A stretch of 64,000 nt of DNA from Myxococcota bacterium (GTDB lineage: Bacteria; Myxococcota_A; UBA796; CAJQPC01). Below are positions 4,384 through 29,338 of this stretch, piece by piece. Location: positions 32,001-96,000 of the forward strand of contig JAZAMN010000064.1 of the NCBI GenBank assembly GCA_036229005.1, given 5' to 3'. Numbering within the stretch: position 1 is the stretch's first letter; the number at the start of each line of letters is the position of its first letter. A program made the position numbers and the translations under genes. The notes beneath the pieces were generated by a model that worked only from the letters and a program-made list of their open reading frames with translations, made no database searches and was not told where the DNA came from.

Positions 4384-4547
4384 ATGTCCAGCTTCAACAG
4401 TGAAGGCACTTTCACACCCCCGCTGTTGACCTGTCAAGTGAAATGTCATCACCGCCCGAGATTGGCGTGACGATCCGACGCCGGATCCCGCGTTTTCATC
4501 CGCCAGATGGGCGTCCTGGTGTAATCTCGGGGCCCCTGGAGGCTCCC

Positions 4548-8244: not shown

Positions 8245-8264
8245 AACAGCCGGCCAAGTTCGCT

Positions 8265-10874
8265 TCAATAAGGAAGCTCAGCCAGCTGACTCAACACAGA
8301 CTCGAGCGTTGGGCGATCGCCCGGCTGGGGACGGGTGCAGGCCCGAAGCAGTTCGCGCCACTCCGGCAGCTGGAGTTGGTCCGGATCCGTCTGCCCGGTG
8401 AGCATGTATGTGAGGACCTTCCCAAAGGCATACACATCCATGGAGGGGTGTGGTTCTGCTTGTAGGACCTGCTCTTCGGGAGCGTAGCCAGGGGTCCAAC
8501 TGCCAGCGAGTGTCCTGCGTGACTGCAGGCGAACGAGGTTCTTTGCGAGGCCGAAGTCCCCCAGCTTCCAACGGTCTTGGACGCGGAGTACGTTCTCGGG
8601 CTTGAGGTCCCGATGTACGACGTCCAACTGGTGGAGGTTGCTAAGCGCTGCGCCAACCTCCAACCCGATTCGCTGGACTTCGGATGGGCCGAGAGTGCCA
8701 CCTTGAGAACGGACGTAGCTCTCCAGAGTACCGCCGTCAGCCAACTCTGTGACCAGGGCCATGGTGGTGTCGTCCTGGTGCACATCCAGGATCTTCAGGC
8801 TTCCCGCCACGTCAGCCCGTTCGAGCTTTGTGTAGATCTGAAGCTCTCGACGCAGCGCAACCGCGTTCAGGTCTTCCCCGACGGGAGCCTGCTTGATGAA
8901 GACCTGCTGACGGCTCTCGTTGTCGAAAGCTCGGTAGGCTCGGCTCATTCCGCCGCCAGCCAACTCCTCCAGGACGGCGTACCGGCCGTAGAGGACGAGC
9001 GTTGGTGTGTTGATGTCCCCGGGTGAGCGGGGGAGGGCAGCGCCGAAGTTCTTCCGAACACTGTCGCTGTCTCGTCCGTTGATCTCTTTTCCTGTTGCGT
9101 TCTCGATCAGGTCCAGCAGTCGTCTGGAGCGGTCGATTTTGAACTCTTCGTAGGTATCCGCCCGCATCAACTCAGGTGATGCCAAGTGGGTCCGACAGTA
9201 GGCATTCAGTTGCTTGGCATCGACGTCAGCGCGCTCGAGAAGCTCCAGGTAGTGGCTGGGGGCATGGCCTGAGATTCGTTGGTTCGTGCGGCGAGCCAGG
9301 GGGGTTCGGTTGTAGATGGCATTGTAGTCAGAGGATGGGATTCCCATACTCTTGCACCACTTCTGGGGAAACAGATGGTGGATGTCGATCGCGTCGCCTG
9401 CGCGGGAGATGTCGGAGACGGTATCCCCCCGGGCAAGGTCCCGACATCCTTGGGCAAGCAGAAGTGCTGCTATGCCTTTGTATGCCGCTGAGTTCCGGGT
9501 CCGGAGCGTAAGGAGGCGTGTAGGCTCGAAACTGCTGTCCCGTACGGTGGTCGGCTCTCGGTCATCGTCATCGACCCACTTGAGAAGGTCGGTAAGGTCG
9601 TGTGCGAATCGGGTCTCTGTACTGCTCCCATACAGCTCCCCAAACACACCACACCAGTACCAGCGCTCGAGCTTCTTGCGGGTTTTCTCGCTCTCTTCCT
9701 TTCCGCCCAGACGGGCAAGTACCGCTGCCAGAGGGACCAACTGAGTGGGATAGGGGACATTGCGCTCGTCGTAGATACACAGGCGCTCGAGCATCCTTGC
9801 TGCCCTGATGAACCCGGCTTCCAGACGGTCCGCTGTCTTCCGATACGACTCCAGCTTCAGGTTCAGCATGTCCTTTCGGGTGCAGCCCACCGCTGTGCCT
9901 TCGCCCGATTCCACTGCTTCAAATGAAGAGAGGAGCGTTACGGCCTGCATGAAATCCCTTGCACGAATCGTGCGCAGGACTGGATACCGGTGCATCCGCT
10001 GAGACCGGCCCTCTTGCTGGAGTCGTTCATTCTCGAAGACACCGTACCAGTCTGCGCGCAGTCTGAAGTCCTCGTCCTCGGCCGAGAACATCGCTGTGAG
10101 GAGCTCAAACACGGTGAGCTTCACGCCTCCAGTGTTCACGTTCTCGAACACCTGGCAGACCGCGGCATGGTCGGTGTTCTGAGCGAGTTCGATGACCGGT
10201 ACACGGTAGGTTCTAAGGTTCTGTAGAACGGTCTCTCTAAACTTGCTGAAGATTGAAAGGGTTTCCTGCGCCGTTCCATTTCCGAAGGCCCAGGTCATTT
10301 GTTCGGCGTGCCAAGTGGCTGCCCTCTCTGCGTCGAATGCAACCTCAAGTGGTATCGCCCAGTGCTTGAACTGCTGTTCGGGACTGCTGAGATCCTTCAC
10401 TACGTCACGGTTGAAGTTCGTCCGAATCACCCGGTCCGAGGGTGTGCTGAGGATTGCGTTTGTCCGTTCCGTGTCTTCGTTTAGACACGCCCTGATATCC
10501 AGGTAGAACCAGCGATCAATCGCCTTTCCCTTCTCGTCCTGTGTCTCCACGGGGCTGTTCTTCTTCAGTGCCTGGAACAGACTCGTGATTCTCTGCTGGC
10601 CATCAAGCAGCAGCAACTCTGGAGCGCGGTTGACCCTTGGTGCTCCCTCAATCGGCCGGGGATGAAATGCCGGTCTCCCGCCCGTCTTCAGCATCAAGAG
10701 TGCGCCGATTGGATAGGCAAGCGAGATGCTCGCCACCAGCGCTCGAATGCCCTCTTCCTTCCATACCCAGCCCCTCTGGAAGTCGGGCAGCTGGATCTCT
10801 CCACGATTCACCCGCTCAAGCAGGGTGGGAAGATCAGGTTGATTCAGGTCGAATGCGGAGATGCCTGCTGGCAT
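8265..10874 (-). CDS. GmrSD-like protein (DUF262 + HNH/DUF1524) fused to a C-terminal Ser/Thr protein kinase
   Basis: DUF262 motifs LPDFQRGWVW, LLDGQQR, FENVNTGG; HNH-like DIHHLFPQ...NRTPL...TNQRIS; kinase LAGGGMSRAY, VFIK, HRDLKPENV, DFG, GYAPE, DVYAFG. Visibly lower GC than its neighbours. Confidence 0.85.
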   Translation of the reverse strand: MPAGISAFDLNQPDLPTLLERVNRGEIQLPDFQRGWVWKEEGIRALVASISLAYPIGALLMLKTGGRPAFHPRPIEGAPRVNRAPELLLLDGQQRITSLFQALKKNSPVETQDEKGKAIDRWFYLDIRACLNEDTERTNAILSTPSDRVIRTNFNRDVVKDLSSPEQQFKHWAIPLEVAFDAERAATWHAEQMTWAFGNGTAQETLSIFSKFRETVLQNLRTYRVPVIELAQNTDHAAVCQVFENVNTGGVKLTVFELLTAMFSAEDEDFRLRADWYGVFENERLQQEGRSQRMHRYPVLRTIRARDFMQAVTLLSSFEAVESGEGTAVGCTRKDMLNLKLESYRKTADRLEAGFIRAARMLERLCIYDERNVPYPTQLVPLAAVLARLGGKEESEKTRKKLERWYWCGVFGELYGSSTETRFAHDLTDLLKWVDDDDREPTTVRDSSFEPTRLLTLRTRNSAAYKGIAALLLAQGCRDLARGDTVSDISRAGDAIDIHHLFPQKWCKSMGIPSSDYNAIYNRTPLARRTNQRISGHAPSHYLELLERADVDAKQLNAYCRTHLASPELMRADTYEEFKIDRSRRLLDLIENATGKEINGRDSDSVRKNFGAALPRSPGDINTPTLVLYGRYAVLEELAGGGMSRAYRAFDNESRQQVFIKQAPVGEDLNAVALRRELQIYTKLERADVAGSLKILDVHQDDTTMALVTELADGGTLESYVRSQGGTLGPSEVQRIGLEVGAALSNLHQLDVVHRDLKPENVLRVQDRWKLGDFGLAKNLVRLQSRRTLAGSWTPGYAPEEQVLQAEPHPSMDVYAFGKVLTYMLTGQTDPDQLQLPEWRELLRACTRPQPGDRPTLESVLSQLAELPY

Positions 10875-10932
10875 GACCCCTCCCAGGAGAGCTTTGGTAC
10901 GTTGGACGACTTCTTCATACCAGACTCCCGAG

Positions 10933-11742
10933 TCAGCGCGCCCGAACTAGCTCCTCCAACACCGCGCTCTCCCCCTCCGCATCCACACAATCGTCCAGCT
11001 CCCACACCACCAGCTCCCCCGATCGGCTGTAGTAGATCCCCACGCGCTCGATGGGCTCCGGGGGCCCACCGTTGAAGCCGTAGGCCCGCGCCAGGATGGC
11101 GTAGCCCACAAGCTGGCGCACATCCTTGAGCCTGAGCCGCAGGTCCTTGGTCGTCTTGATGTCGATCAGCAGGTCATCCAGCACCAGGTCGGCGTCCGCC
11201 CCGCCCACAATCAGCGAGCCTTCGCCAAAGCCTGGGTTCAGCAGGCAGCGCTCCGCGGGCACGAAGGCGTCCCAGGTGATCTCCGCGTAGAGCGCCTGCA
11301 ACTCCTCCAGCCACCCCGGGGGCGGTTCGCGACCAATCCACGTATCGGGCGCGACCGACGCGACGCCCCGCCCGATGGGCTCCAGCAGCGCGAGATCCCA
11401 GCACGCCCGAGCCTGCGCCCGAGTCAGCGCTTCGGCATCCTCCCAGGTCTGCAGGTCCTGCAGGGCCCGCTCCAGCAGCGCCTCACAAGCCCGCGCCTGC
11501 TCACGACTCCGCTGAGCGAGGGGGGCCCGCTCGGCAATCAGCGGCCCGCTCTCGCAGCGCTCCGGCCACAGGACCTCAAAGCCCGCCCGCATCGCGTAGT
11601 CGAACGCGGTCCCCATCAGCGCCGGACTGCCCCCGCAGGAAGGCACGCGCAGCGGCTCGCCGGGCCGACACTCGGGCTTCCGCATCCACTGCTTGAACAC
11701 AGCCCGGCCGCTGGGACTGTCTGCTCGGCTGGTGAGGCTCAT
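10933..11742 (-). CDS. Putative PD-(D/E)XK nuclease
   Basis: GTAFDY, LNPGFG, GADADLVLDDLLIDIKTT and QLVGY resemble the RecB/Cas4-like nuclease core (D...DxK, QxxxY). Confidence 0.65.
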   Translation of the reverse strand: MSLTSRADSPSGRAVFKQWMRKPECRPGEPLRVPSCGGSPALMGTAFDYAMRAGFEVLWPERCESGPLIAERAPLAQRSREQARACEALLERALQDLQTWEDAEALTRAQARACWDLALLEPIGRGVASVAPDTWIGREPPPGWLEELQALYAEITWDAFVPAERCLLNPGFGEGSLIVGGADADLVLDDLLIDIKTTKDLRLRLKDVRQLVGYAILARAYGFNGGPPEPIERVGIYYSRSGELVVWELDDCVDAEGESAVLEELVRAR

Positions 11743-11805
11743 GGGCTCCCCGTCCTTGGGCGCAATGCGCGTTCACCCCTGCGCCCGCAATGCGCAGAAG
11801 AAGGC

Positions 11806-12243
11806 GTGCATGCTACCCTCTGCGGCCCCAAGCAGGCCATCCGCCAAAGACCCCGGGGGGAAGCACCCTTGCGCAGCCTACGAGACCAGATCCTCCACCT
11901 CCGGCAGCAGCCTCTGCTTCACATAGACGCAATCCGGGCCCGCATCGACCAACACCTCCAAACCGCCCAAACCGCCGCCCAGACCTCCCCCTTCGTCGAC
12001 CTCCCCACGGCCGCCACGATCCACGCCGCCTGCACCGAGCTCCTCAACGACTGGGACCAGCTCACCGACGATGCGCGCCTCTGGGCCCAGGTCGCCTGCC
12101 TCTACTTCGCCGACCCCGATGACTCCGCCGGCGAGCCCGACTTCGACTCCATCGTGGGCTTCGACGACGACCTCGACGCCCTCAACCACTGCCTCGAGCG
12201 CATCGGCCGCCCGCCGGTCCCGCACCCCATGGACGCCCCATGA
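11806..12243 (+). CDS. Small YkvA/DUF1232-like protein (start may be TTG at 11869)
   Basis: ACLYFADPDD...PDFDSIVGFDDD resembles the DUF1232 motif Y..SP.D.IPD....G..DD; its stop overlaps the SNF2 start (ATGA). Confidence 0.5.
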   Translation: MHATLCGPKQAIRQRPRGEAPLRSLRDQILHLRQQPLLHIDAIRARIDQHLQTAQTAAQTSPFVDLPTAATIHAACTELLNDWDQLTDDARLWAQVACLYFADPDDSAGEPDFDSIVGFDDDLDALNHCLERIGRPPVPHPMDAP

Positions 12244-15107
12244 GCACCCTGAACACCTACCCCCCAGGCCAGCGCGTCGAGATCCGGGACGAGGAGTGGC
12301 TGGTCCGCCGCACACTCCCGGCCCAACAAGGCACGGCTGTCCAGGTCATCGGCCTCTCTGAGCTGGTGCGCGGCCACGAGGCCACCTTCCTGGACACCCT
12401 GGACCCCGTCACCGTCCTGCGGCCCGAAGACACCGAGCTCGTCCCGGACCCCAGCCCCGGCCACCGCCGCAGCCGCCTCTACCTGGAGGCCCTGCTCCGG
12501 CGCAGCCCGCCCACCGACCCCCGGCTGGTCATCGGCCACCGCGCCGCCATCCGCGAGAGCCCCTACCAGTGGGCCCCCGCCGCCCAGGCCCTCCGCCAGC
12601 CCCGCCCCCGCATCCTCATGGCCGACGGCGTGGGCCTCGGAAAGACCATCGAGGTCGGCGTCCTGCTCTCCGAGCTCATCCAGCGGGGCAGGGGACAGCG
12701 CATCCTGGTCGTCGCCCTCAAGTCCATCCTGGCCCAGTTCCAGGAGGAGCTCTGGGCCCGCTTCACCATCCCCCTGGTCCGCCTGGACTCCGTGGGCATC
12801 CAGCGCGTCCAGGGCCGCATCCCGGCCAACCAGAACCCCTTCCATTACTTCGACCGCGTCATCGTCTCCATCGACACCCTCAAGAAGGATGCGCGCTACC
12901 GCGGCTACCTGGAGAACGCCCACTGGGACGCCGTCGTCATCGACGAGTGCCAGAACGTCGCCGAGCGCGGCACCAAGGCCTCCCAGCGCGCCCGCCTGGC
13001 CCAGCTCCTCGCCCGCACCGCCGACGCCCTCATCCTGACCTCCGCCACCCCCCACGACGGCCGCCCCGAGTCCTTCGCCAGCCTCATGCACCTGCTGGAG
13101 CCCACGGCCATCGCCGACCCCAGCCAGTACACCAAGGACGAGGTCCAGGGCCTCTTCATCCGCCGCTTCCAGAAGGACGTCCGCGCCGGCGCCTCCGGCA
13201 GCTTCCACGAGCGCCAGCTCGGCACCCTGGCCCCCCGCTGCACCGACCCCGAAGAGGCCGCCCTGCTCGCCGTCCGCGGCGCCCGCTTCCACACCATCGG
13301 CCGCTCCCGCAAGACCGACGCCCTCTTCCGCGTCCTGCTCCTCAAGGCCCTGCTCTCCAGCCCCGCCGCCTGCCTCCAGACCCTCGCCGAGCGCCGCCGC
13401 AAGCTGGAGAAGCGCGAGCAGACCGACGACGTGGTCCACGACCTGCAGGTCATCGACGACCTCACACAGACCGTCTCCGCCATCTCCACCGCCCAGCAGT
13501 CCAAGCTCCAGGCCCTCTTCCAGTTCCTGGACGACCTGGGCTACCGCAAGGGCACCCCCGGCAAGCGCGTCGTCATCTTCTCCGAGCGCCGCGCCACCCT
13601 GGACATGCTGCAAGAGCAGCTCGCCGCCCGCTACGGCCTCAAGACCACCGCCGCCCGCAAGGGCGAGCTCCACAAGTGGCGCAAGGGCCAGATCGCCACC
13701 TTCCACGGCTCCCTCCCCGACCAGGAGCAGTACGCCTTGGTCCAGGACTTCTCCAACGAAAAGGGCAGCCTCCGCCTGCTCCTGGGCTCCGACGCCGCCG
13801 CCGAAGGCCTGAACCTCCACCACACCTGCCACCACCTGGTCCACTTCGACATCCCCTGGTCGCTGATCACCCTGGAGCAGCGCAACGGCCGCATCGACCG
13901 CTTCGGCCAGAGCGAGCCCCCCATCATCCGCTACCTGCTCTCCGACCCCGGCCACCCCGATCTGCAGGGCGACATGCGCATCCTCAAGCGCCTGATCGAC
14001 AAGGAGGGCGAAGCCGCCGCCAACCTGGGCGACGTGGCCTGGCTCATGAAGCTCCACGACGCCGTCCAGGAAGAGCGCCGCATCGCTCAGGCCATCGAGT
14101 CCGGCGAGTCCCCCGAGTCCGTGCTCCCCGACGCCGACGACCAGCCCCAGGACGACGACGACTGGCTCCAGGCCCTGCTCGAGGAAGAGGAGGAGGAGGA
14201 GCCGGAGACCACCCGCCCATTCCGCCTCCTACCCTCTGACCTGGAGTATGCCCGCCTGGGCTTTGGAGAGCTGCTGGCCGACGGCGAGGACAGGCTGGTC
14301 CAGTGGGAGCCCGAGCTCTCCGGCTTCGTCCTGCAGATGCCCCCGGACCTGGCCACCCGCTACCGCTACCTGCCCCCCCAGCTCCAGCGCGGAAAGGACG
14401 GCCGCCTCAAGCTCAGCACCGACCGCAAGCGCGTCATGGACGCCTACGCCCAGGCCCGCAACACCGAAGACGGCTGGCCCGAGTGGGAGCTCTTCTGGGA
14501 GCAGCACCCCGTGGCCGAGTGGCTCAACGACCGCGTCCTGGCCACCTTCCGCCGCCACGAGGCTCCCGTGCTCCCGGTGCACGCCCACCTGCAGCCTGGC
14601 CAGGCCGCCTACATCTTCCAGGGCGTGCTCGCCAACCAGCGCTCCGTCCCCGTTCGGGTGGAGTGGGGGGCCGTCGTCCTGCGCGGCCCCGGCGACCTGC
14701 AGCTCCAGCCCTTCGAGAGCCTCGCTGCCGCCGTCGGCCTGGACCAGCCTCTGCCCAACACCGGCCAGTCCCTGGACACCGCCCCCCTCAGCGCGAACCT
14801 CCCCGCCGCCGTCCGCGCCTTTGGCGACCACATGCGCCGCGTCTCCCTGGAGTACCAGCGGGACGCCGTCGCCCAGCTCCGCCCCGCCGTCCGCAAGCTC
14901 CGCGGCTGGCACGGCCGCAGCCTGGAGCAGCTCCAGGCTCAGCAGCAGCGCCTCATCGGCGCCCAGAGCGTCAAAGAGCGCCAGCTCCAGCAGCAGCGCC
15001 AGGAGCTCGACCGCGTCTACAAGAGCCGCCACGACTGGATCCAGAACTCCGTCAAGCCCGGCCCCCCCACCACGCGACTGGCCGCTGTGCTGGTCCGCCC
15101 CGCCTGA
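12240..15107 (+). CDS. SNF2-family helicase, DrmD-like
   Basis: ILMADGVGLGKT, VVIDECQ, TSATPH, VIFSE, EGLNL, LEQRNGRIDRFGQ; N-terminal GQRVEIRDEEWLV. Confidence 0.9.
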   Translation: MSTLNTYPPGQRVEIRDEEWLVRRTLPAQQGTAVQVIGLSELVRGHEATFLDTLDPVTVLRPEDTELVPDPSPGHRRSRLYLEALLRRSPPTDPRLVIGHRAAIRESPYQWAPAAQALRQPRPRILMADGVGLGKTIEVGVLLSELIQRGRGQRILVVALKSILAQFQEELWARFTIPLVRLDSVGIQRVQGRIPANQNPFHYFDRVIVSIDTLKKDARYRGYLENAHWDAVVIDECQNVAERGTKASQRARLAQLLARTADALILTSATPHDGRPESFASLMHLLEPTAIADPSQYTKDEVQGLFIRRFQKDVRAGASGSFHERQLGTLAPRCTDPEEAALLAVRGARFHTIGRSRKTDALFRVLLLKALLSSPAACLQTLAERRRKLEKREQTDDVVHDLQVIDDLTQTVSAISTAQQSKLQALFQFLDDLGYRKGTPGKRVVIFSERRATLDMLQEQLAARYGLKTTAARKGELHKWRKGQIATFHGSLPDQEQYALVQDFSNEKGSLRLLLGSDAAAEGLNLHHTCHHLVHFDIPWSLITLEQRNGRIDRFGQSEPPIIRYLLSDPGHPDLQGDMRILKRLIDKEGEAAANLGDVAWLMKLHDAVQEERRIAQAIESGESPESVLPDADDQPQDDDDWLQALLEEEEEEEPETTRPFRLLPSDLEYARLGFGELLADGEDRLVQWEPELSGFVLQMPPDLATRYRYLPPQLQRGKDGRLKLSTDRKRVMDAYAQARNTEDGWPEWELFWEQHPVAEWLNDRVLATFRRHEAPVLPVHAHLQPGQAAYIFQGVLANQRSVPVRVEWGAVVLRGPGDLQLQPFESLAAAVGLDQPLPNTGQSLDTAPLSANLPAAVRAFGDHMRRVSLEYQRDAVAQLRPAVRKLRGWHGRSLEQLQAQQQRLIGAQSVKERQLQQQRQELDRVYKSRHDWIQNSVKPGPPTTRLAAVLVRPA

Positions 15108-15116
15108 GAGCGCCCC

Positions 15117-19691: not shown

Positions 19692-22600
19692 TCCCCAGCG
19701 TCGTCGCCCGCCAGCTCCAGGACAACCTGCTGGACTACGTGGGGGCCACCCTGGCCCTCTCCGACGCCGCGGTGGACGACGCCCTGCAGGCGCACCTGGC
19801 CGGGAAAAACGGCCTCTTCGCCGGGCCCTACCTGCGCCTGGGCCTGCCCTTTGCCAGCGCGCCCGCGGACGCGCCTCCGGTGCTGGACGTCGGGCCGCCC
19901 TTTGTGCCCTACGCCCACCAGCGGCAGGCCTTCGAGCAGCTCTCCAGCGACCAGGCCCAGCCGCGCAACACGCTGATCACCACGGGCACCGGCTCGGGCA
20001 AGACCGAGTGCTTTTTGTACCCCATCCTGGACCACTGCCAGCGGCACCGGGACACGCCGGGGGTGCAGGCCATCCTGATCTACCCCATGAACGCCCTGGC
20101 CACCGACCAGGCCCGGCGCTTCGCCCAGGCCATCCACGAAGATCCGCGCCTGCACGGCCTGCGCGTGGGTCTGTATGTGGGCGGCAAGGGGGGCACCCGC
20201 AAGATGGGCCCCGAGCAGGTGATCGAAGACAAGGACGTGCTGCGCAAGCACCCCCCACAGATCCTGCTCACCAACTACAAGATGCTGGACTTCATGCTGC
20301 TGCGCCCCGACGAGCGCAAGCTGTGGTCCCACAACGGCCCCCAGACCCTGCGCTACCTGGTGATCGACGAGCTGCACACCTTCGACGGCGCCCAGGGCTC
20401 GGACGTGGCCTGCCTGATCCGGCGCCTCAAGGCCCGCCTGGGCACGCCCCCGGGGCACCTGATCTGCGCGGGGACCTCGGCGACCATCGGCGGCAGCGCG
20501 GACGGCGACTCAGTGGCCCGGCTCTCGGAGTTCGCCGGCCTGGTCTTTGACGCGGACTTCCACCCCAGCGCCGTGGTGGGGGAGCAGCGCGTGCCCCGCC
20601 GGGAGTTTCTGCGACAGGCCACCGGCCCCACGCCGCTGCCTGACCGCGCCCAGCTCGCCGCCCTGCACCCCGGACCGGACGCGGAGGCCTGGCTGAGCCA
20701 GCAGCAGCAGCTCTGGCTGGGCCAGGTCTTCGACGACCCGGTGGCCCTGGGCGACGCCCTGCGCGCGCACCCCCTGCTGGACCACCTGCTGGCGCTCTGC
20801 GCCGCGCACCCTCGGCCCCTGCCCAAGCTGGCCCAGCGCCTGCACGAGCGCATGCCGGAGCTGCGCGCCTACCGCGACGACGCCCTGGGCGCGCTGCTCG
20901 ACTCCTTCTTGGGCTTGCTGGCCCACGCCCGCCGCAAGCAGGGCTCCAAGACCCTGCCGCTGGTCACCCTGCAGATGCAGCTCTGGAGCCGGGAGCTCAC
21001 CCGCCTGCTGCGCGTGCTCCCCAACCGCCAGCGCCCCGAGCAGCAGCCCGAGATCGGTGAGTCCCCGGGCATCGACGGGCTGGTCCCGCGCTTTGTGTGG
21101 TGGACCGAGCAGCCCAACCCCGACCGCTCCAAGCCCCTGGCCGGTGTGCAGGCCCACTGCCGCGAGTGCGGCGCCGTGGGCTTGGCCTGCGCGGAGACGG
21201 AAGCCGACCAGCAGAAGGGCCAGCTCACCTGGGACCCCGGCGCGGTGGGCCAGCACTGGATGGAGAGCAGCCGGGCGGCGCGCTTTCTGTGGCTGCGCCC
21301 CCTGGACCACGAGCAGCGGGTGGGGGAGCTGATCCACTGGCTGGATCCCAGCGGCGGCGTGGTCATGGGCGTGGAGCCCGTGGACGACCAGGGGCAGGGG
21401 ACCGGCGTGCCCGTCATCGTGGAGAAGCGCCTGGGCAACGGGGGGCGCTTTCTGGCCCAGTGCCCCTGCTGCGAGAGCGAAGACGCCCTGCGCATCCTGG
21501 GCGCCCGCGCCGCCAGCCTGAGCAGCGTGGTCATCTCCCAGCTCTTCCAGTCGGACTACCACCACGACCCCAAGCTGCTGGCCTTCACCGACTCGGTGCA
21601 GGACGCCAGCCACCGGGCCGGGTTCTTTGGCGCCCGCAGCTTCCGCATTCACCTGCGCGTGGCCATGCAGGCCGTCCTGCGCGCCGCCCAGGACCGGGGG
21701 GAGACCCTGACCCTGGAGAGCGCCCCCAAGGCCTTCCTGGAGCACTGGAAGGCCGAGCAGGGCGCGGCCTGGACCATGGCCGCCTTCTTCCCGCCCGACC
21801 TGCGGGAACTGCCCGAGTTCACGACCTACGTGGAGAAGAAGGGCAAGGGCCGCCACCAGCGCCTGTGGAACATCCTGCGCGCCCGCATGGGCTGGGAGTT
21901 CACCCGGGAGTTCGGCCTGATGGCCAGCCTGGGGCGCAGCCTGGAGCGCACGGGGGCCAGCACCCTGGCCATCGATCCCCAGCGCCTGGAGCAGGCGCAG
22001 CAGCGCTTTGAGCAGTGGCTGGCCCAGGACGGGCTGGCCGGCCCCAAGGCCCTGCCCCGCGCCTTCGTGCTGGGCCTGCTCCACCGCATGCGACACCAGG
22101 GCGGCATCCACCACCCCTACCTGGAGAGCTACCGGCGCAGCCTGGGCAACGCCTTCCTGCTCAACCGCCGCAAGAACCCCCACATCAGCTACTTCGGCCG
22201 CCGCACGCGGCGCCCCCGCTATGTGAGCTCCTACGCCAAGGGAAAACGTTTTGCCTCGCCCTTCTCCCGCCGCTCGGCGGCGGGCTGGTACGGCGACTGG
22301 ATGAACCGCTGCCTGGACTGGGGCAGCCCCGGTCCCGACGACGTGGCCCGCGTCTACCGCCAGCTCCTGGCCCACCTGGTGGAGGCCGGCATCCTGGAGC
22401 AGCGGGACGCCGAGGGCGGCGCCGAGACCTGGGGCCTGCGCCCCGACGCCCTGCACCTGAGCCTGGAGCTGGGCCGCCTGCGGGACGGGCACCGCCACCA
22501 GCACCTGCACGCCGCGGAGACCCAGGTCATCGCCGGCGGCCCGGTCTGGCGCTTCCGGGCCCCGGAGCGCTTTGTGTCTCAGAAGCCCCAGCCCGGCTTC

Positions 22601-25600
22601 TACGCCCAGGTCTACGCCCGTGAGCAGAGCAGCCGCGTGCTCTCCGCCGAGCACACCGGCCTGCTGGAGCGCGAGCCCCGCACCCTGCTCGAGCAGCGCT
22701 TCCTGGCCTCGCCCGACCCCCAGGACCCTCTGGCGCCCAACCTGCTGGTGTGTACGCCCACGCTGGAGATGGGCGTGGACATCGGTGACCTCTCCGCCAC
22801 CCTGCTGTGCTCCGTGCCCCCCACGCCGGCCAACTACCTGCAGAGGGTGGGCCGCGCAGGTCGAAAGACGGGCAACGCCCTCATCTTCACCCTGGCGACC
22901 TTCAAGAACCACGACCTGTACTTCTTCGCCGAGCCCGAGCGCATGCTGGACGGTCAGGTCGCCACCCCCGGTGTGTTCCTGGGGGCGACCGCGATGCTCC
23001 AGCGCCAGCTCTCGGCCTGGTGCATGGACCGCTGGGCCCAAGACGACCCCGGCGCCGAAGCCATCCCCGCCAAGGCCAGCCTGGTGCTCAGCGAGCAGGG
23101 CGCGCAGGTCTTTCCGGGGCGCTTTCTGGACTACTTCAAGGAGCACCGGGAGCGCCTGCTGGCGGGCTTCCTGGAGCGCTTCTCCCAGACCGGCCTGCGC
23201 CCCCAGACCCAAGCGCTGCTGACGGCCTGGGTGCAGGATCAGGCCCACGGGCTGGAGCAGGCGATCCCCGGGGCGTTTGCGGAGCTGCAGGCGCAGATCA
23301 AGCAGTACGCCTACGAGCGCCAGAAGGCCAACGAGCGCATCAAGCAGATCGAGGCCGACCCCACCCTGGTGGGGGACGCCGCGCTGGAGATCAAGGAGCT
23401 CAACCGCCACCGGCTGGTGCTCTCCCAGCTCATCGGCGAGCTGCGCCGCACCTACCCCCTCAACGTGCTCGCCAACCGCTCCCTGCTTCCCAACTACGCT
23501 TTCCCAGAGGCTGGCGTGGAGCTGCACTCGCTGCTGGCCGAGAACCGTCAGGGGCCCGGCGACCAGACCGAGCGGCACTACGACAAGCGGAGCTACCAGC
23601 GGCCGGCCGCCCGCGCCCTGCGGGAGCTGGCGCCCTTCAACACCTTCTACGCCGACGGCCACAAGGTCCGCGTCACCGAGCTGGAGCTGGGCCCCAAGGC
23701 CAAGCTGGTGCGCTACCACCGCATCTGCCCCACCTGCCACCACCACAGCATCCAGCCGGTCAACCCCCAGGAGCCCTGCAAAGACCCGGGCTGCCCCAGG
23801 TGCGGAGACCCGCAGTGGGGGGACAAGGGCCAGGTGCGCGCGCTGCTCTCCCTGAGCACCGTGCGCTCGGTGGCCGACCGCGTGCTCAGCACCACGGTGG
23901 ACGACAGCGAAGAGCGGGAGCGCCAGTCCTACCACCTGATGGGTCTGTATCAGGTGCTGGAGACCGAAGGGCAGGCCCTGGTCCACCCGGAGCTGGGCTT
24001 TGGCTTCGAGTACGTGCGGGAGCTGCGCTACACCGAGCTCAACACCGGGCCGCGCACCGCCGTGGACGGGGGGCCCAAGCTGCGCTTGGCCGGCGAGGAG
24101 GTCTCGGCCCAGGGCTTCATGGTCTGCGCCGACTGCGGGGGCGTGCAGGAGCCCAGCAGCGGTGGGCGGGACCCCAAGCTGCGACACAACTTCCGCTGCC
24201 CGCAGCGGAACAAGGACAACAAGGCGCTGCTGCCCCTGTACCTGTCGCGGGAGCTGCGCTCGGAGGCCGTTCGCTTCCTGATGCCCTTCTCCCAGGTGCA
24301 GGTGGAGCAGAAGCAGCGCAGCTTCCAGGCCGCCCTGAACTTTGCCCTGCGCCGCCGCTTCCAGGGGCGCCCCATCCACCTGGGGGTGGGCACCATGTCC
24401 GAGCCCGTGCCGGGCAAGAAGGACCAGCGAAAGCACTTCTTGGTGCTGCTGGACACCGTGCCTGGGGGCACCGGCTACCTGCGCGAGTATCAGGACCGGG
24501 AGCAGGTCTTTGGGCTGCTCCAGCTCGCGCTGGACGGCCTGCGGGGCTGCGGCTGCCAGCAGCAGGGGCGGGACGGTTGCTACCTGTGCCTGTTCGCGCA
24601 CCAGGCCCAGCGGCACCTGCCCCTGCTCTCCAGCAAGGTCGCCCAGGACATGCTGCAGGAGATCCTGGACAGCAAGCACGAGTTCGACGGCGCCAGCGGG
24701 GGCCTGAGCGGCACCAACGTGTCCTCGGTCTTGGAGTCCGAGCTCGAAGAGCGCTTCGTGAGCTGGCTCCAGGCCCAGAGCGGTGTGGAGCTCACCCCCC
24801 AGGGCCAGGACTTCCGCCTCCAAATCGGGGAGTGTGTGTGGGTGATGAAGCCCCAGGTGGACCTGCACGCCGAGGCCGGTCAGCCCATGCGCGCGGACTT
24901 TGTGCTCTATGGGGCCCAGGGGCCCGCGCTGAATCAGGTGGTCGTGATCGAGTGCGACGGCTTCGAGTACCACGCCATGCCCGGCAAGCCCGACTGCAGG
25001 CTGGAGGGGGACGTGGAGAAGCGACAGTCCCTGGTCCAACGCCCGGGCTGGCAGGTGTTCTCCCTGACCTGGCAGGACCTCGTCGGCGAGGACACCCCGG
25101 CCTTTGCTCCGGAGGCGTTCATCGGGCGGCCCACCAAGACCCGGGAGAAGATGTTGGACCGGGTCGCGCCCAAGCTCCCGCACCTGAGCGTGGAGACCTT
25201 GCGCAAGCTCCCGGGGCTGGATGCAGGGGGGCTCCTGCTGGCGTGGCTGCGACAGCCCGTCCCGGACTGGTCGGGTGCGGTGAGCGGTCTGTGTCACGCT
25301 GCGCTGATCGGGGCGCTCAAGGGGCAGGGGAGCCTGGACGCCTTCTCGCTGGGCAAGCTGCAGGACCACCTGGAGGGGCAGCGGACACTGTCGCCGCTGC
25401 CGCCCCTGGGACACAACCGGAAGCCCAAGAACACCGAGCCGCTGGGGGTGTCCAGCGCGGATGCCTACTGTGCGGGGCTGGTCTGGCTCCCGGAGATGGC
25501 GCAGGCGGTGCAGCTCGGGGTCAGCAACTTGCGGCTGATCCTGCGGCTGGAGGACAGCCACCACGCCCGCCAACAGGCTGACTACCGGGAGAGCTGGCGG

Positions 25601-26071
25601 CGCTTCCTGATGGGCATGAACCTGCTTCAGTTCTTGCCTCAGACACAGGTGCTCCTGAGCTCCCAAATCGAGGAGCTCTCGGAGGACTCCATCGACATCC
25701 TGGCCGCCCTGGGCCTGGACGACGACGACGTGGTCGGCATGGCGGCCAGCGCGGAGGACCCGGGGTATCAAGCCGATCCTGCGGCGGTCTATGCGGACGC
25801 GCTGCTGCTCGAGGAGCCGGAGCAGGTTCTGATCCGCAAGCTCGCGGAGCTGGGCGTGACGCTGCCCGCGCTGGAGCCGCCGGACCTGCCCGAGGGCCTG
25901 CCCGCGGACTTGGTGTGGCCGGAGCACAAGCTGGCGCTGTGTCAGCCGGACGACCTGGAGCCCGGCGACCTGGACACGCTGCGCGCCGCAGGCTGGCAGC
26001 CATTGCTGCTGCCCCAGAGCCCTGAGACCATCAAGCGCGCCCTGGAGCGCGCCCGGAAGGAGTCGCAATGA
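19688..26071 (+). CDS. Giant DEAD/DEAH-box helicase with DUF1998 Zn domain and C-terminal Vsr/DUF559-like endonuclease
   Basis: Q motif PYAHQ, TGTGSGKT, YPMNALATDQ, DELH, TSAT, TPTLEMGVDIG, QRVGRAGR; several CxxC pairs; DUF1998 DTVPGGTG...CGC...GCYLCL; nuclease-like ESELE...RADF...IECDGFEYH...D..KR...GWQV..LTW. Confidence 0.9.
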   Translation: MIPSVVARQLQDNLLDYVGATLALSDAAVDDALQAHLAGKNGLFAGPYLRLGLPFASAPADAPPVLDVGPPFVPYAHQRQAFEQLSSDQAQPRNTLITTGTGSGKTECFLYPILDHCQRHRDTPGVQAILIYPMNALATDQARRFAQAIHEDPRLHGLRVGLYVGGKGGTRKMGPEQVIEDKDVLRKHPPQILLTNYKMLDFMLLRPDERKLWSHNGPQTLRYLVIDELHTFDGAQGSDVACLIRRLKARLGTPPGHLICAGTSATIGGSADGDSVARLSEFAGLVFDADFHPSAVVGEQRVPRREFLRQATGPTPLPDRAQLAALHPGPDAEAWLSQQQQLWLGQVFDDPVALGDALRAHPLLDHLLALCAAHPRPLPKLAQRLHERMPELRAYRDDALGALLDSFLGLLAHARRKQGSKTLPLVTLQMQLWSRELTRLLRVLPNRQRPEQQPEIGESPGIDGLVPRFVWWTEQPNPDRSKPLAGVQAHCRECGAVGLACAETEADQQKGQLTWDPGAVGQHWMESSRAARFLWLRPLDHEQRVGELIHWLDPSGGVVMGVEPVDDQGQGTGVPVIVEKRLGNGGRFLAQCPCCESEDALRILGARAASLSSVVISQLFQSDYHHDPKLLAFTDSVQDASHRAGFFGARSFRIHLRVAMQAVLRAAQDRGETLTLESAPKAFLEHWKAEQGAAWTMAAFFPPDLRELPEFTTYVEKKGKGRHQRLWNILRARMGWEFTREFGLMASLGRSLERTGASTLAIDPQRLEQAQQRFEQWLAQDGLAGPKALPRAFVLGLLHRMRHQGGIHHPYLESYRRSLGNAFLLNRRKNPHISYFGRRTRRPRYVSSYAKGKRFASPFSRRSAAGWYGDWMNRCLDWGSPGPDDVARVYRQLLAHLVEAGILEQRDAEGGAETWGLRPDALHLSLELGRLRDGHRHQHLHAAETQVIAGGPVWRFRAPERFVSQKPQPGFYAQVYAREQSSRVLSAEHTGLLEREPRTLLEQRFLASPDPQDPLAPNLLVCTPTLEMGVDIGDLSATLLCSVPPTPANYLQRVGRAGRKTGNALIFTLATFKNHDLYFFAEPERMLDGQVATPGVFLGATAMLQRQLSAWCMDRWAQDDPGAEAIPAKASLVLSEQGAQVFPGRFLDYFKEHRERLLAGFLERFSQTGLRPQTQALLTAWVQDQAHGLEQAIPGAFAELQAQIKQYAYERQKANERIKQIEADPTLVGDAALEIKELNRHRLVLSQLIGELRRTYPLNVLANRSLLPNYAFPEAGVELHSLLAENRQGPGDQTERHYDKRSYQRPAARALRELAPFNTFYADGHKVRVTELELGPKAKLVRYHRICPTCHHHSIQPVNPQEPCKDPGCPRCGDPQWGDKGQVRALLSLSTVRSVADRVLSTTVDDSEERERQSYHLMGLYQVLETEGQALVHPELGFGFEYVRELRYTELNTGPRTAVDGGPKLRLAGEEVSAQGFMVCADCGGVQEPSSGGRDPKLRHNFRCPQRNKDNKALLPLYLSRELRSEAVRFLMPFSQVQVEQKQRSFQAALNFALRRRFQGRPIHLGVGTMSEPVPGKKDQRKHFLVLLDTVPGGTGYLREYQDREQVFGLLQLALDGLRGCGCQQQGRDGCYLCLFAHQAQRHLPLLSSKVAQDMLQEILDSKHEFDGASGGLSGTNVSSVLESELEERFVSWLQAQSGVELTPQGQDFRLQIGECVWVMKPQVDLHAEAGQPMRADFVLYGAQGPALNQVVVIECDGFEYHAMPGKPDCRLEGDVEKRQSLVQRPGWQVFSLTWQDLVGEDTPAFAPEAFIGRPTKTREKMLDRVAPKLPHLSVETLRKLPGLDAGGLLLAWLRQPVPDWSGAVSGLCHAALIGALKGQGSLDAFSLGKLQDHLEGQRTLSPLPPLGHNRKPKNTEPLGVSSADAYCAGLVWLPEMAQAVQLGVSNLRLILRLEDSHHARQQADYRESWRRFLMGMNLLQFLPQTQVLLSSQIEELSEDSIDILAALGLDDDDVVGMAASAEDPGYQADPAAVYADALLLEEPEQVLIRKLAELGVTLPALEPPDLPEGLPADLVWPEHKLALCQPDDLEPGDLDTLRAAGWQPLLLPQSPETIKRALERARKESQ

Positions 26072-28695
26072 GCGACAGCAACTTTGCCCCCTTGGACCGC
26101 CCCGCGCAGGAGCTCGCCGAGCTCGGCCGCTTGGCAGAGCGAGCCTTCGCCCAGGACCCCCGCGCGGCCATGTCGCACCTGCGCCTCTTTGGGGAGCGCA
26201 TGGCGCTGGCCCTGCTGGATGTGTATCGCCTGCCCATCTACGCCGAGTCGCAGGTGGACCGGCTGCGGCGGCTGCGTCAGCAGACCAGCATGGGGCCGCG
26301 GGTGCTGGACCAGCTCCACACCCTGCGTCAGGAGGGCAACAAGGCGGTGCACGCCTACGGTCGGGTGTCGCATTCTGAGGCCATGCGCATGCTGCGCGCG
26401 GCGCACGCGCTGACCCGCTGGTACTGGAAGGAGCACACCGCCAAGCAGCCGCCCAAGCCGGGGGAGTTCATCAAGCCCACGGCCAGCGGGGACCGCCGCC
26501 AGGCGGCCATCCTCAAGGCCCAGCTGGACGCTGAGCGCGTCCAGCGCAAGCGGCAGCATGAGCAGGTGCAGGACCTGCTGCGCATGCTGGACATGCCCCA
26601 GGTGGCCTTCTTCGCGGGGGTGCGGGACTGCTTTCAGGGCCTGGACGAGGACACCCAGGCCCAGATGGAGGTCTTCCTCAAGCTCTTCCGGGAGGAGCCC
26701 CTGCACGAGGACTGGCCCCTGGAGACGCCCCAGGGCATGGCGGACCCCAAGGTGCGCTTTGTGCGACAGCACGGGCTGGTGGTCACCGTGGTGGAGTCGC
26801 CCCGCGGGGAGCTGCTGGTGGTCGCCCACTTGGGCACCCAGGAGCAGGCCACCGAGTGGGCCAACGGCCGGCGCTTTCAGGTGCACCCCATCACCGGCAC
26901 GCTGCAGGTCTTTGACGTGCAGGAGGCTGAGCAGGCTGCCCCGCAGAGCGCCAAGGGCTCGCTGCTGCAGAGCTTTGACGACACCAGCCTGACCTCGCTT
27001 GGGCTACCGGCAGCGCTGCTGCCGGCCGTTCGCAGCCTGGACACGGTCGCAGAGCTGGATGGGTTGGCCCCCCACCTTCCGCCAGAGGCATCCGACGCGC
27101 TCTACCTGCTGGCCGCTGGATACACCTTGGAGGAGACCCGCGCGGAGCTGCAGGGCGCGCCGCCTGAGGCCGAGACCGCCGAGCCCGTCGAGATCGACGA
27201 GCAGGACTTCGCCGCGGCGGTGCATCACCCGGACTCCCAGCGCAGCTTCAAGCTGCCCGAGGACAGCGGCGATCTGGAGGCGGTGCTCAGTGGGAGCGTG
27301 GAGGCCTGGCGCCTGTACCTGCACCCCGATCAGCAGAAGCTGGTGCGCATGAACGCCAACGGCCCCGTCCGGGTGCTGGGTGGCGCGGGCACCGGCAAGA
27401 CCGTGGCGCTGATGCATCGGACCAAGGTGCTGCTGGAGGAGCGCTTTGTGCGACAGGAGCGCGTGCTGGTGACCACCTACACGCGGAACCTGGCCAGCGA
27501 TCTGGAGCACCACCTGCGACAGCTGCTGGAGCCTGCGGACCTGGCGCGCCTGGAGGTCGTCAACTTCCACGCGCTGAGCGCGCGGCTCTGGGCCGAGCAC
27601 GGCAACGGCAAGTCCATCGCGCGGCAGCGGCACCAGGACCAGGCCTGGGAGACGGCCATGACCCACGAGAGCTTGGGGCTGCCCATCAGCTTCTATCAGG
27701 ACGAGTTCGCACAGATCCTGCTGGGTCAGGACATCACCCAGGAGCGCGCGTACCTCAAGGCGCGGCGCACAGGACGGGGAGTCCCCCTGGGGAGGGCGCA
27801 GCGGCGACAGGCCTGGACTGTGTTTGAAGCCTACCGGCGCGACCTGGACGACCACGCACAGATCGAGCACGGAGACGCCCTGCGCATCCTGCGCGAGCGC
27901 TACGAATCGGGTGAGATCCAGGGCCCCTTCGCGGCCGCCCTCGCGGACGAGGTGCAGGACTTCGGGGCGCCGGAGCTGCGCTTTCTGCGGGCCTTCATCC
28001 CGGCGGGGCCGGACGATGTGTTCCTGGTCGGGGACGCGCACCAGCGCATCTACGGGAGCCCGGTGCGCATGGGCAAGTGTGGCATCGAGATCCGGGGCCG
28101 CTCGCGCCGGCTCAAGGTCAACTACCGCACCACCGCGCAGGTCAAGGACTGGGCCGTCGCCGCGCTCGAGGGCCTGGAGGTGGACGACATGGACGGCGGC
28201 CAGGACACCCTGCGGGGCTACCACTCGCTGCGCACCGGGCCGGCTCCGCGGGTCCTGATGCACGGCAACCGGGAGCAGGAGCTGGCCGCCATCCGGGATC
28301 AGGTGCGCCGCTGGATTCAGCAGGACGCCCCTGAGCACGTCTGTGTCGCCGCGCGCACCAACAAGCTGGCCAAGGACATCGCGGAGGATCTGGTGGCCTC
28401 CGAGATCCCCTGTGTGGTGCTGGAGACCGACGCCAGCGCGTCGGGGGAGGGGGTGCGCATCGCGACCTTCCACCGGCTCAAGGGGCTGGAGTTCCCGCGG
28501 GTCCTGCTGGCTGGCGTCGAGAGCGGGCTGATGCCCCTCCGCATCCGAGGCTTCTCGACGATGGACCAAGACAGCAAGACCCGCTGGGACCAGCGGGAGC
28601 GCTGCCTGCTCTACGTGGCCGCTACGCGCGCTCGGGACGAGCTGGTGGTGACCGGCAGCGGCGCGACCTCCGAGTTCCTGGGGGAGGGGAGCTGA
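26068..28695 (+). CDS. UvrD/SF1 helicase with N-terminal DUF4145-like and degenerate RelE-like domains
   Basis: N-terminus SNFAPL...LAERAFAQDP...LRLFGE resembles the type I HsdR N-terminal domain; LRQEGNKAVH; SF1 motifs GGAGTGKT, DEVQD, GDAHQRIY, NYRT, TFHRLKGLEF, LLYVAATRAR. Confidence 0.88.
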   Translation: MSDSNFAPLDRPAQELAELGRLAERAFAQDPRAAMSHLRLFGERMALALLDVYRLPIYAESQVDRLRRLRQQTSMGPRVLDQLHTLRQEGNKAVHAYGRVSHSEAMRMLRAAHALTRWYWKEHTAKQPPKPGEFIKPTASGDRRQAAILKAQLDAERVQRKRQHEQVQDLLRMLDMPQVAFFAGVRDCFQGLDEDTQAQMEVFLKLFREEPLHEDWPLETPQGMADPKVRFVRQHGLVVTVVESPRGELLVVAHLGTQEQATEWANGRRFQVHPITGTLQVFDVQEAEQAAPQSAKGSLLQSFDDTSLTSLGLPAALLPAVRSLDTVAELDGLAPHLPPEASDALYLLAAGYTLEETRAELQGAPPEAETAEPVEIDEQDFAAAVHHPDSQRSFKLPEDSGDLEAVLSGSVEAWRLYLHPDQQKLVRMNANGPVRVLGGAGTGKTVALMHRTKVLLEERFVRQERVLVTTYTRNLASDLEHHLRQLLEPADLARLEVVNFHALSARLWAEHGNGKSIARQRHQDQAWETAMTHESLGLPISFYQDEFAQILLGQDITQERAYLKARRTGRGVPLGRAQRRQAWTVFEAYRRDLDDHAQIEHGDALRILRERYESGEIQGPFAAALADEVQDFGAPELRFLRAFIPAGPDDVFLVGDAHQRIYGSPVRMGKCGIEIRGRSRRLKVNYRTTAQVKDWAVAALEGLEVDDMDGGQDTLRGYHSLRTGPAPRVLMHGNREQELAAIRDQVRRWIQQDAPEHVCVAARTNKLAKDIAEDLVASEIPCVVLETDASASGEGVRIATFHRLKGLEFPRVLLAGVESGLMPLRIRGFSTMDQDSKTRWDQRERCLLYVAATRARDELVVTGSGATSEFLGEGS

Positions 28696-29321
28696 TGTGG
28701 GGACCGCTGCAGGCGCTGTCTCGGCGTCGGTCTGTGTTTCATTCCGAGGCGGACTTCCAGTTCGAGCTGGCCACCGAGCTGCGGGAGCTAGGGTGGACCG
28801 AGATCCGCCTGGAGCGCCCCGCGCCCGGGCAGTCGGGTCGCATCTACGTGGACATCGTTGCGCGGGACCCGGATGGCGTGCGCTGGGCCATCGAGCTCAA
28901 GTACTGGACCCGCAAGCTGGAGCTCACCCTGGGCGACGACGTATTCGAGCTGCGGGACCAGTCCGCTCATGACCTGAACCGGTACGCGTTCTGCAAGGAC
29001 CTGGCGCGGGTTCAGCGCTTGGTGGCAGAGGGTGTCGCGCAGCGGGGGCGGGTCATCGCGCTGACCAACGACTCGGCCTACTGGAAGCCCGGGCGCTCGG
29101 AGCAGTGCTTGGATGCGGCGTTCCGCATTCACGAGGGCCGCGAGCTGTCCGGTGTGCTGGACTGGACCCGTGAGAGCGGGACCACCAAGGGAAAGGGGCC
29201 CTTGGCGCTGTCGAGCCCGGTCGCGCTGGCTTGGGAGGACTTCTGTGAGCTGGATGGGAAGCGGGGGCGCTTCCGCTTGTTGGACGTGCGCATTCCAGAG
29301 AGTGCGCACCCGCCGGGGTGA
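28695..29321 (+). CDS. Putative PD-(D/E)XK restriction-endonuclease-fold protein
   Basis: FHSEADFQFELA...YVDI...IELKY pattern; TGATG coupling to the UvrD gene; its stop codon lies inside the right direct repeat. Confidence 0.7.
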   Translation: MWGPLQALSRRRSVFHSEADFQFELATELRELGWTEIRLERPAPGQSGRIYVDIVARDPDGVRWAIELKYWTRKLELTLGDDVFELRDQSAHDLNRYAFCKDLARVQRLVAEGVAQRGRVIALTNDSAYWKPGRSEQCLDAAFRIHEGRELSGVLDWTRESGTTKGKGPLALSSPVALAWEDFCELDGKRGRFRLLDVRIPESAHPPG

Positions 29322-29322
29322 G
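29306..29322 (+). repeat. Right 17-bp direct repeat (attR-like) of the defence island
   Basis: GCACCCGCCGGGGTGAG, identical to 8228-8244. Confidence 0.8.
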
Positions 29323-29326
29323 CGGC

Positions 29327-29332
29327 TACAAT
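29327..29332 (+). promoter_or_regulatory. -10 element (TACAAT) of a probable leaderless promoter
   Basis: TACAAT, then 6 nt, then ATG at 29339; no Shine-Dalgarno sequence in the spacer. Confidence 0.6.
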
Positions 29333-29338
29333 TCCGCC

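Follow-up and report, generated by a model that had tools for sequence, protein, structure and literature searches.

An ARMADA type II locus in a Myxococcota bacterium that encodes a HEPN-bearing variant of ArmD

Does the cluster of helicase, methyltransferase and nuclease genes in the genome of a Myxococcota bacterium (assembly GCA_036229005.1) represent an undescribed anti-phage system? The cluster occupies positions 8265-29321 of a stretch of 64,000 nucleotides of contig JAZAMN010000064.1 (hereafter the window), and a sequence-only reading had interpreted it as a new type of operon consisting of six coupled genes and a divergent arm with a GmrSD-kinase gene. Four of these genes almost certainly constitute ARMADA type II, a system that has already been named; what is new is the variant of ArmD that they encode, in which a HEPN-type domain has very probably been gained and residues of a RelE-like domain have been lost, and which was not found in print.

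The six open reading frames (ORFs) on the plus strand and the two on the minus strand were confirmed, with the lengths and junctions that had been reported for the coupled genes. The core of the cluster, armABCD (12240-28695), comprises the following genes.

12240-15107, plus strand: armA, 955 aa; BrxHII/RapA-like SNF2 helicase (Walker A K135, Walker B D235)
15117-19691, plus strand: armB, 1524 aa; PglX-like adenine methyltransferase (GxG G579, NPPW N908; Pfam Eco57I and N6_Mtase)
19688-26071, plus strand: armC, 2127 aa; YprA-family helicase (K105, D227) with a DUF1998/MZB four-cysteine cluster (1621-1634) and a Vsr-type nuclease domain
26068-28695, plus strand: armD, long variant, 875 aa; UvrD/GajB-like helicase (K444, D627) preceded by two N-terminal domains

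The start of armA overlaps a small upstream ORF by ATGA at 12240; armA and armB are separated by 9 nt (15108-15116), armB and armC overlap by GTGA at 19688, and armC and armD by ATGA at 26068. The junction between armD and the downstream gene for a protein of 208 aa is a TGATG that ends in the ATG at 28695. Pfam recovered the domains that the sequence-only reading had recognized, namely SNF2 in ArmA, N6-methyltransferase in ArmB, DEAD and MZB/DUF1998 in ArmC, UvrD in ArmD, and GmrSD_N and Pkinase in the product of 8265-10874; the DUF4145/HEPN domain of ArmD, also matched by Pfam, and its degenerate RelE-like domain had been missed.

ARMADA type II was named and validated in 2025 (Bell et al., bioRxiv 10.1101/2025.09.15.676423, PMC12458937; mBio, PMC13463889). 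It is defined by the gene order A-B-C-D, which is also the order in the window. In Escherichia coli, none of the four genes is dispensable, and the defence obtained is broad and non-abortive, without cell death or metabolic shutdown; it requires Walker A and NPPW residues, and the NPPW mutant is inactive (bioRxiv 10.1101/2025.09.15.676423). The need for all four genes was confirmed in a second strain (PMC13463889). The reference used here is the island of E. coli, with accessions for ArmA and ArmD that equal those in Table S2 of Bell et al. and with other alleles of ArmB and ArmC. By BLASTP, ArmA matches its E. coli counterpart (WP_001041505.1) over the full length (39.0% identity, 619 bits), ArmB shows 42.7% identity (1150 bits), ArmC 35.2% over residues 1-1798 (900 bits), and ArmD 34.7% (WP_000218177.1; 394 bits), with residues 177-871 aligned to residues 6-701. 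All eight residues mutated by Bell et al. are conserved (ArmA K135 and D235; ArmB G579 and N908; ArmC K105 and D227; ArmD K444 and D627). The sequence-only reading had named a match to a known system as the result that would speak against novelty, and orthologues of ArmA-D in the same order, with every mutated residue in place, are such a match.

The motifs of the putative Vsr-type nuclease of ArmC (ESxLExxF at 1683, RxDF at 1735, ECDGxxYH at 1755, and DxxKRxxL at 1775) fall in the region that can be aligned to E. coli ArmC; they were located with patterns that we take to be typical of Vsr. The assignment of ArmC to Vsr comes from Table S2 of Bell et al. (bioRxiv 10.1101/2025.09.15.676423). 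Discrimination between self and non-self by armABCD may be based on methylation; the available text of Bell et al. and of PMC13463889 gives no methylated motif for ARMADA II.

The earlier view that the operon is an anti-phage system related to DISARM, with a methyltransferase, and distinct from both DISARM and Druantia agrees with the profile and BLASTP evidence. An SNF2 helicase, an adenine methyltransferase, and a YprA-type helicase with DUF1998 also occur in DISARM class 1, but there DrmA and DrmB are separate, whereas the window fuses helicase and MZB/DUF1998 in one frame of 2127 aa; the nuclease of DISARM class 1 belongs to the PLD type (DrmC), that of the window to the Vsr type. As had been noted from the sequence, a PLD gene is missing: neither a PLD domain nor DrmC was matched among the ORFs of 8265-29321 with Pfam, PADLOC, and NCBIfam. 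Membership in DISARM was rejected, with DrmD below the cut-off and no match to DrmB or DrmC. Druantia type III likewise has a large single-chain YprA helicase with DUF1998, but the likeness is only local (113 bits for the best piece of DruE against ArmC of the window); the eight proteins of the island have no BLASTP match to E. coli DruH and no PLD match in Pfam, and membership in Druantia type III was also rejected. None of the profiles for named systems attained its curated cut-off in the PADLOC and NCBIfam scans of the locus, which compared individual profiles; DrmD with ArmA, for instance, scored 315 bits in NCBIfam (cut-off, 610). PADLOC-DB 2.0.0 (2023) is older than ARMADA and returned partial matches only.

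The window shares with ARMADA II of E. coli the four orthologous genes and their order, the SNF2 helicase, the NPPW methyltransferase, the YprA-DUF1998-Vsr chain, and the RelE-like-UvrD arrangement. E. coli lacks the DUF4145/HEPN addition and the degeneration of the RelE-like domain. The window further differs in a DUF1232-like gene that overlaps armA, in having no DruH or DruE gene in 8265-29321, and in the tail of ArmC beyond residue 1798, which does not align to E. coli ArmC by BLASTP.

The profile REase_MTase_IIG of PADLOC covers ArmB from end to end (858 bits), which would fit a stand-alone type IIG restriction-modification enzyme, with helicase genes that in this lineage are decaying modules or only loosely connected. 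The dispersal of the arm genes in two relatives points in the same direction: in G048 (loci L209, L042, and L163) and G065 (L210, L043, and L172), armA, armB, and armC-armD lie on separate contigs among unrelated neighbours. However, both genomes retain all four genes, each of which is essential in E. coli, and the frames of the window are intact and coupled, which makes a solitary ArmB highly improbable. In these dispersed loci, the small upstream gene stays with armA; in G065, McrB- and McrC-like genes come after armA.

The survey of gene neighbourhoods that the sequence-only reading had recommended showed that the four core genes co-occur widely. Among 17 genome loci with ArmC, all four genes are present in order in 4 (L001, L011, L012, and L014), and most of the remaining loci are truncated at a contig end or interrupted by insertions. 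In metagenomes, which contributed 80 loci with relatives of ArmD, ArmC is located upstream in 54 of the 58 loci with at least 3 kb of upstream sequence. A full match to ArmB is present in only 7 of 154 genomes of the order to which the window belongs, and the distribution of ARMADA II is therefore patchy.

What distinguishes the locus is the architecture of ArmD, which is 171 aa longer than the homolog of E. coli (875 vs. 704 aa). Approximately 170 of the extra residues are N-terminal and precede a region that corresponds to the head of the E. coli protein.

26068-26457, plus strand: DUF4145/HEPN domain of ArmD, approximately residues 1-125 (E24, R39, E43, R87, N91, H95)
26593-26871, plus strand: degenerate RelE-like domain of ArmD, residues 176-268, aligned to residues 5-98 of E. 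coli ArmD

The first domain, which is followed by a long helix (residues 142-174), matches DUF4145 in Pfam with 27.9 bits for whole ArmD and 32.5 bits for the domain alone (cut-off, 23.1), and the same family is matched at E<=1 by all nine aligned members. DUF4145 has been classed as HEPN, and fusions of DUF4145 to UvrD helicases annotated as 'endoV alpha subunit' have been listed, in the available text without a link to an ARMADA context (PMC3710099). An alignment of the best 120 homologous clusters and E. coli ArmD contained 46 long forms (including that of the window) and 73 short forms, after two partial sequences had been dropped; because the clusters were ranked by likeness to a long query, the ratio of 46:73 is no measure of prevalence. 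When the phylum was sampled evenly, 29 ArmD matches were obtained, of which 7 are long.

Conservation within the long forms is high: E24, R39, E43, and H95 are present in all 46, and R87, G90, and N91 in 45, so that the motif R87-x2-G-N91-x3-H95 retains both its arginine and its histidine in 45 of 46 sequences. In the AlphaFold model of ArmD (mean pLDDT, 89.7), R87, N91, and H95 are located on one predicted helix (residues 77-95). Fold searches with the full model matched UvrD/Rep-type helicases throughout and did not thereby probe the head domains. A term search of the available text and four supplements of Bell et al. (Table S1 in part) returned no occurrence of HEPN or DUF4145, and no literature on a HEPN-RelE-UvrD fusion in ArmD was found (subscription journals and later preprint versions were outside the search).

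The second domain has lost residues that are nearly invariant in short ArmD, with L237, V238, and Q258 taking the place of tyrosine, arginine, and histidine. Y237 is kept in 72 of 73 short but in none of the 46 long forms, R238 in 73 vs. 1, and H258 in 73 vs. 2; D256 (69 vs. 2) and N217 (68 vs. 0) follow the same pattern. Losses are concentrated in this domain: of the columns conserved to at least 85% in short ArmD, the long forms have lost 13 of 34 in the RelE-like domain, whereas the linker has lost 3 of 40 and the helicase 7 of 168.

A profile built from 28 short heads shows a weak alignment with YoeB (E=0.019), in which the Y-R pair falls on an H-R pair of YoeB, whose arginine we take to be catalytic; 17 of the 28 heads match ParE_like in Pfam at E<=1. 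Ceg14 (E=0.018), which ties with YoeB among the top Protein Data Bank (PDB) rows for this profile, was treated as a chance match. RNase activity has been predicted for the RelE-like domain (Bell et al., bioRxiv 10.1101/2025.09.15.676423), and the pattern of substitutions argues that any such activity has been lost from ArmD of the window.

Among 11 loci in which long ArmD could be placed (a fragment in G002 was unplaceable and is not counted), it directly follows ArmC in 7, namely in the window, G036, G458, G048, G065, G067:C104, and G087, where the six other proteins share 50-57% identity with ArmD of the window. Source names on the close homologs are those of Myxococcota. In the remaining four loci, identity is lower (38-42%) and the context differs. 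G396 (L165:2820-19072, contig G396:C53) carries long ArmD in a DISARM class 1 locus, directly after drmD, a methyltransferase gene, drmA, and drmB, at the position where drmC would be expected; DrmD, DrmA, and DrmB all exceed their NCBIfam cut-offs. In G384, long ArmD follows drmD and a short methyltransferase gene; in G455, BREX genes are more than 10 kb away; and in G067:C38, the locus has no match to a core gene. A metagenome scan for long-form loci with generic helicase patterns yielded 80 loci, none of which has a HEPN head. Just downstream of long armD in G458 (L162:243-2941) are zorA- and zorB-like genes, which score below the NCBIfam cut-offs and echo the pairing of ARMADA II with Zorya in E. 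coli.

Taken as a whole, the locus probably encodes an intact ARMADA II that restricts phage DNA as in E. coli and in which the predicted RNase head of ArmD has likely been swapped. ArmB would mark the DNA of the host with N6-methyladenine. The best mechanistic guide for ArmC may be its relative DruE, which loads on single-stranded DNA and unwinds it in 3'-5' direction (bioRxiv 10.64898/2026.05.13.724758); by analogy, ArmC would load on single-stranded or forked phage DNA, unwind it 3'-5', and cut it with its Vsr domain, with ArmA and ArmD as accessory motors. In long ArmD, the role of an RNase coupled to the UvrD motor would pass from the RelE-like domain to the HEPN domain, and the RelE fold would remain as a spacer.

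Several points weigh against this reading. Concerning the system, two loci (L003 and L017) contain ArmC without ArmB upstream, the dispersed genomes G048 and G065 lack a common operon, and ArmC was assigned by comparing its pairwise scores with E. coli ArmC and with DruE and not by a tree of the YprA family. Concerning the variant, 4 of the 11 placeable long-ArmD loci do not follow ArmC, and gain and loss occurred on one branch and do not represent repeated co-variation: in a FastTree phylogeny of residues 269-870 (without both head domains; rooted on E. coli), the 46 long forms group together in a single clade (support, 0.947), so that gain and loss count as a single event. Concerning the function, the spacer between arginine and histidine is 7 residues long, outside the HEPN consensus Rx4-6H (PMC3710099), with an asparagine at position -4 from the histidine; the invariant acidic residues are E24 and E43, the latter within R39-x3-E43, and the acidic residue of the HEPN consensus is that of an upstream Ex3[KR]-type motif. 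Sequence searches of PDB with the HEPN region matched no credible solved structure, and, according to the available text, the RelE-like domain was not among the sites mutated in Bell et al. (bioRxiv 10.1101/2025.09.15.676423).

The unusual R-x7-H spacing, together with the resemblance of the region to the N-terminus of type I HsdR (NF008521, residues 2-169), would also be compatible with a dimerization or regulatory module of the HsdR type, in which case ArmD would simply have lost its RNase function within an ordinary ARMADA II. The protection of E. coli without cell death or metabolic shutdown fits this explanation, since an RNase may be dispensable in a non-abortive system. However, R87, N91, and H95 follow one another at intervals of four residues along a single predicted helix and persist in 45-46 of the 46 long forms down to approximately 40% overall identity, and E24, R39, and E43 are invariant, a pattern that would suit an active site better than a scaffold. 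A purely regulatory head is therefore unlikely, and the balance tips slightly towards a HEPN domain that is an active RNase, as predicted from its residues. That a HEPN-bearing ArmD gives rise to an abortive outcome is doubtful.

The core is flanked by the following genes.

8265-10874, minus strand: GmrSD-kinase gene, 869 aa (DGQQR at 91, DxHHxxP at 497; intact Ser/Thr kinase with K661, HRDLKPEN at 754, and DFG at 773)
10933-11742, minus strand: PD-(D/E)XK-like gene, 269 aa (D185...D195-I-K, QxxxY at 210; PADLOC RTasPDDEXK, E=3e-8)
11806-12243, plus strand: small ORF, 145 aa; likely start TTG at 11869, then approximately 124 aa
11869-12243, plus strand: the same ORF from its likely start, a small DUF1232-like gene that overlaps the start of armA; candidate accessory gene
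28695-29321, plus strand: PD-(D/E)XK-like gene, 208 aa (motif D53...E67-L-K69)
29318-30406: alpha/beta hydrolase ORF that overlaps the preceding 208-aa gene by GTGA

The small gene is located directly upstream of armA in all five loci of the close clade (the window, G036, G087, G065, and G048), and a profile of the five proteins matches in 2 of 98 other loci (L012:18474-18734 and L014:18408-18683), both within approximately 100 nt of the end of armD in ARMADA II loci labelled actinobacterial. The family also stands alone, with armA within 1.5 kb in only 4 of the 29 non-self matches in the order. No Pfam family matches the 145-, 208-, and 269-aa proteins, and the label DUF1232 should be taken as a lead only.

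The sequence-only reading had regarded the nuclease downstream of armD as a core part of the system. The overlap of the alpha/beta hydrolase gene, which is joined by GTGA in the same manner, illustrates that overlap alone is no proof of membership. The 208-aa gene has one homolog in 400 other genomes of the phylum, and this is not located beside ARMADA; none was found in 80 metagenome ArmD loci, 61 of which extend at least 1 kb downstream. It is likely cargo of the island rather than core, and the same is likely for the 269-aa gene, homologs of which are present in 13 of 153 other genomes of the order but near armA in only one (G087). In that genome, a gene for a NucS-domain endonuclease (L041:8823-9962) lies between the 269-aa homolog and the small gene upstream of armA. 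The nuclease calls for both proteins derive from motifs and weak matches; a single-sequence model of the 208-aa protein (pLDDT, 41.6) was unusable.

The GmrSD-kinase gene ends at 8265 and not at 8245 as first given. Its product shares the DGQQR motif of DUF262 and a C-terminal DxHHxxP motif of the HNH type with GmrSD and BrxU (HEC-05) type IV enzymes (PMC4619093; bioRxiv 10.1101/2024.01.29.577857); GmrSD_N is matched in Pfam with 100.8 bits, and GmrSD_C has no Pfam match. The C-terminal Ser/Thr kinase is not among the extra domains named for GmrSD/BrxU in the available text of bioRxiv 10.1101/2024.01.29.577857, and no description of the fusion was found in the available parts of that study or of PMC4619093. 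Fusions of this kind are present in 16 of the top 120 clusters; all 16 have DGQQR, and 15 have an HRD-type motif. On a tree of the GmrSD part only, the fusions fall into two groups.

Could this gene and the downstream nuclease nevertheless be integral to an undescribed six-gene system, as an obligate nuclease and a co-evolved arm that cuts modified DNA? The gene overlaps are real, the motifs of GmrSD and kinase are intact, and DUF262-like genes show weak matches in 6 of the 80 metagenome ArmD loci. In E. coli, ARMADA II failed against hypermodified Straboviridae (PMC13463889), and the combination of BREX with BrxU sets a precedent for complementarity; the GmrSD-kinase could therefore complement ARMADA in this one host, but as the benefit of a neighbour and not as a conserved arm. 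Against integration, the core belongs to ARMADA II, no copy of the 208-aa gene was found next to ARMADA in the other loci examined, and the GmrSD-kinase gene differs in composition (GC, 0.59; GC3, 0.69; codon adaptation index [CAI], 0.42) from armABCD (GC3, 0.92-0.96; CAI, 0.72-0.86), which makes separate acquisition likely. Its sole full-length relative in the order occurs among other neighbours in a genome without a match to ArmB or ArmD (G080; 92% complete, fragmented). The full-length search was limited to six scored candidates in each genome, where kinases are numerous, and may have overlooked matches; it was therefore repeated with the GmrSD part alone in five ARMADA-bearing relatives; none has an orthologue (one weak match of 113 aa). 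The GmrSD-kinase is not linked to ARMADA in the other genomes searched. A paired arm is not upheld, and an integrated six-gene system is very unlikely; more probably, this is a defence island in which the GmrSD-kinase gene and both PD-(D/E)XK-like genes are neighbours of ARMADA that act independently.

The surroundings of the island comprise a SLOG/LOG-family gene (7131-8243, plus strand; LDcluster4, PpnN-like) with host-like codon usage, which converges on the GmrSD-kinase gene, and, approximately 4 kb from the island, a gene for a Dam-family adenine methyltransferase (3499-4452, minus strand; TIGR00571 above cut-off), beside which a restriction partner was not recognized. The translation of 542-1549 has repeated blocks of approximately 30-40 residues, which points to clustered DNA repeats and not to a gene. 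No att-like or array-like repeats are evident in 7000-31000, and there is no tRNA gene within the window.

The presence of a RelE-like domain on ArmD sits oddly with the non-abortive mode of ARMADA II. The clade in which the RelE residues disappeared and a second predicted RNase fold was acquired provides a natural experiment, which suggests that an RNase at that position matters, and the comparison indicates which residues should be mutated in the long and the short form of ArmD. One may tentatively envisage that an ARMADA II lineage, belonging to Myxococcota by the source names of its homologs, exchanged its RelE-like RNase for a HEPN RNase that is connected to UvrD and serves as a back-up for dormancy or suicide, that the DUF1232-like protein is a fifth, regulatory subunit of ARMADA, and that the combination of HEPN, dead RelE, and UvrD is portable, occurring also in DISARM class 1 directly after drmB. 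The occurrence of long ArmD beside drmB links the two defence systems through a shared effector.

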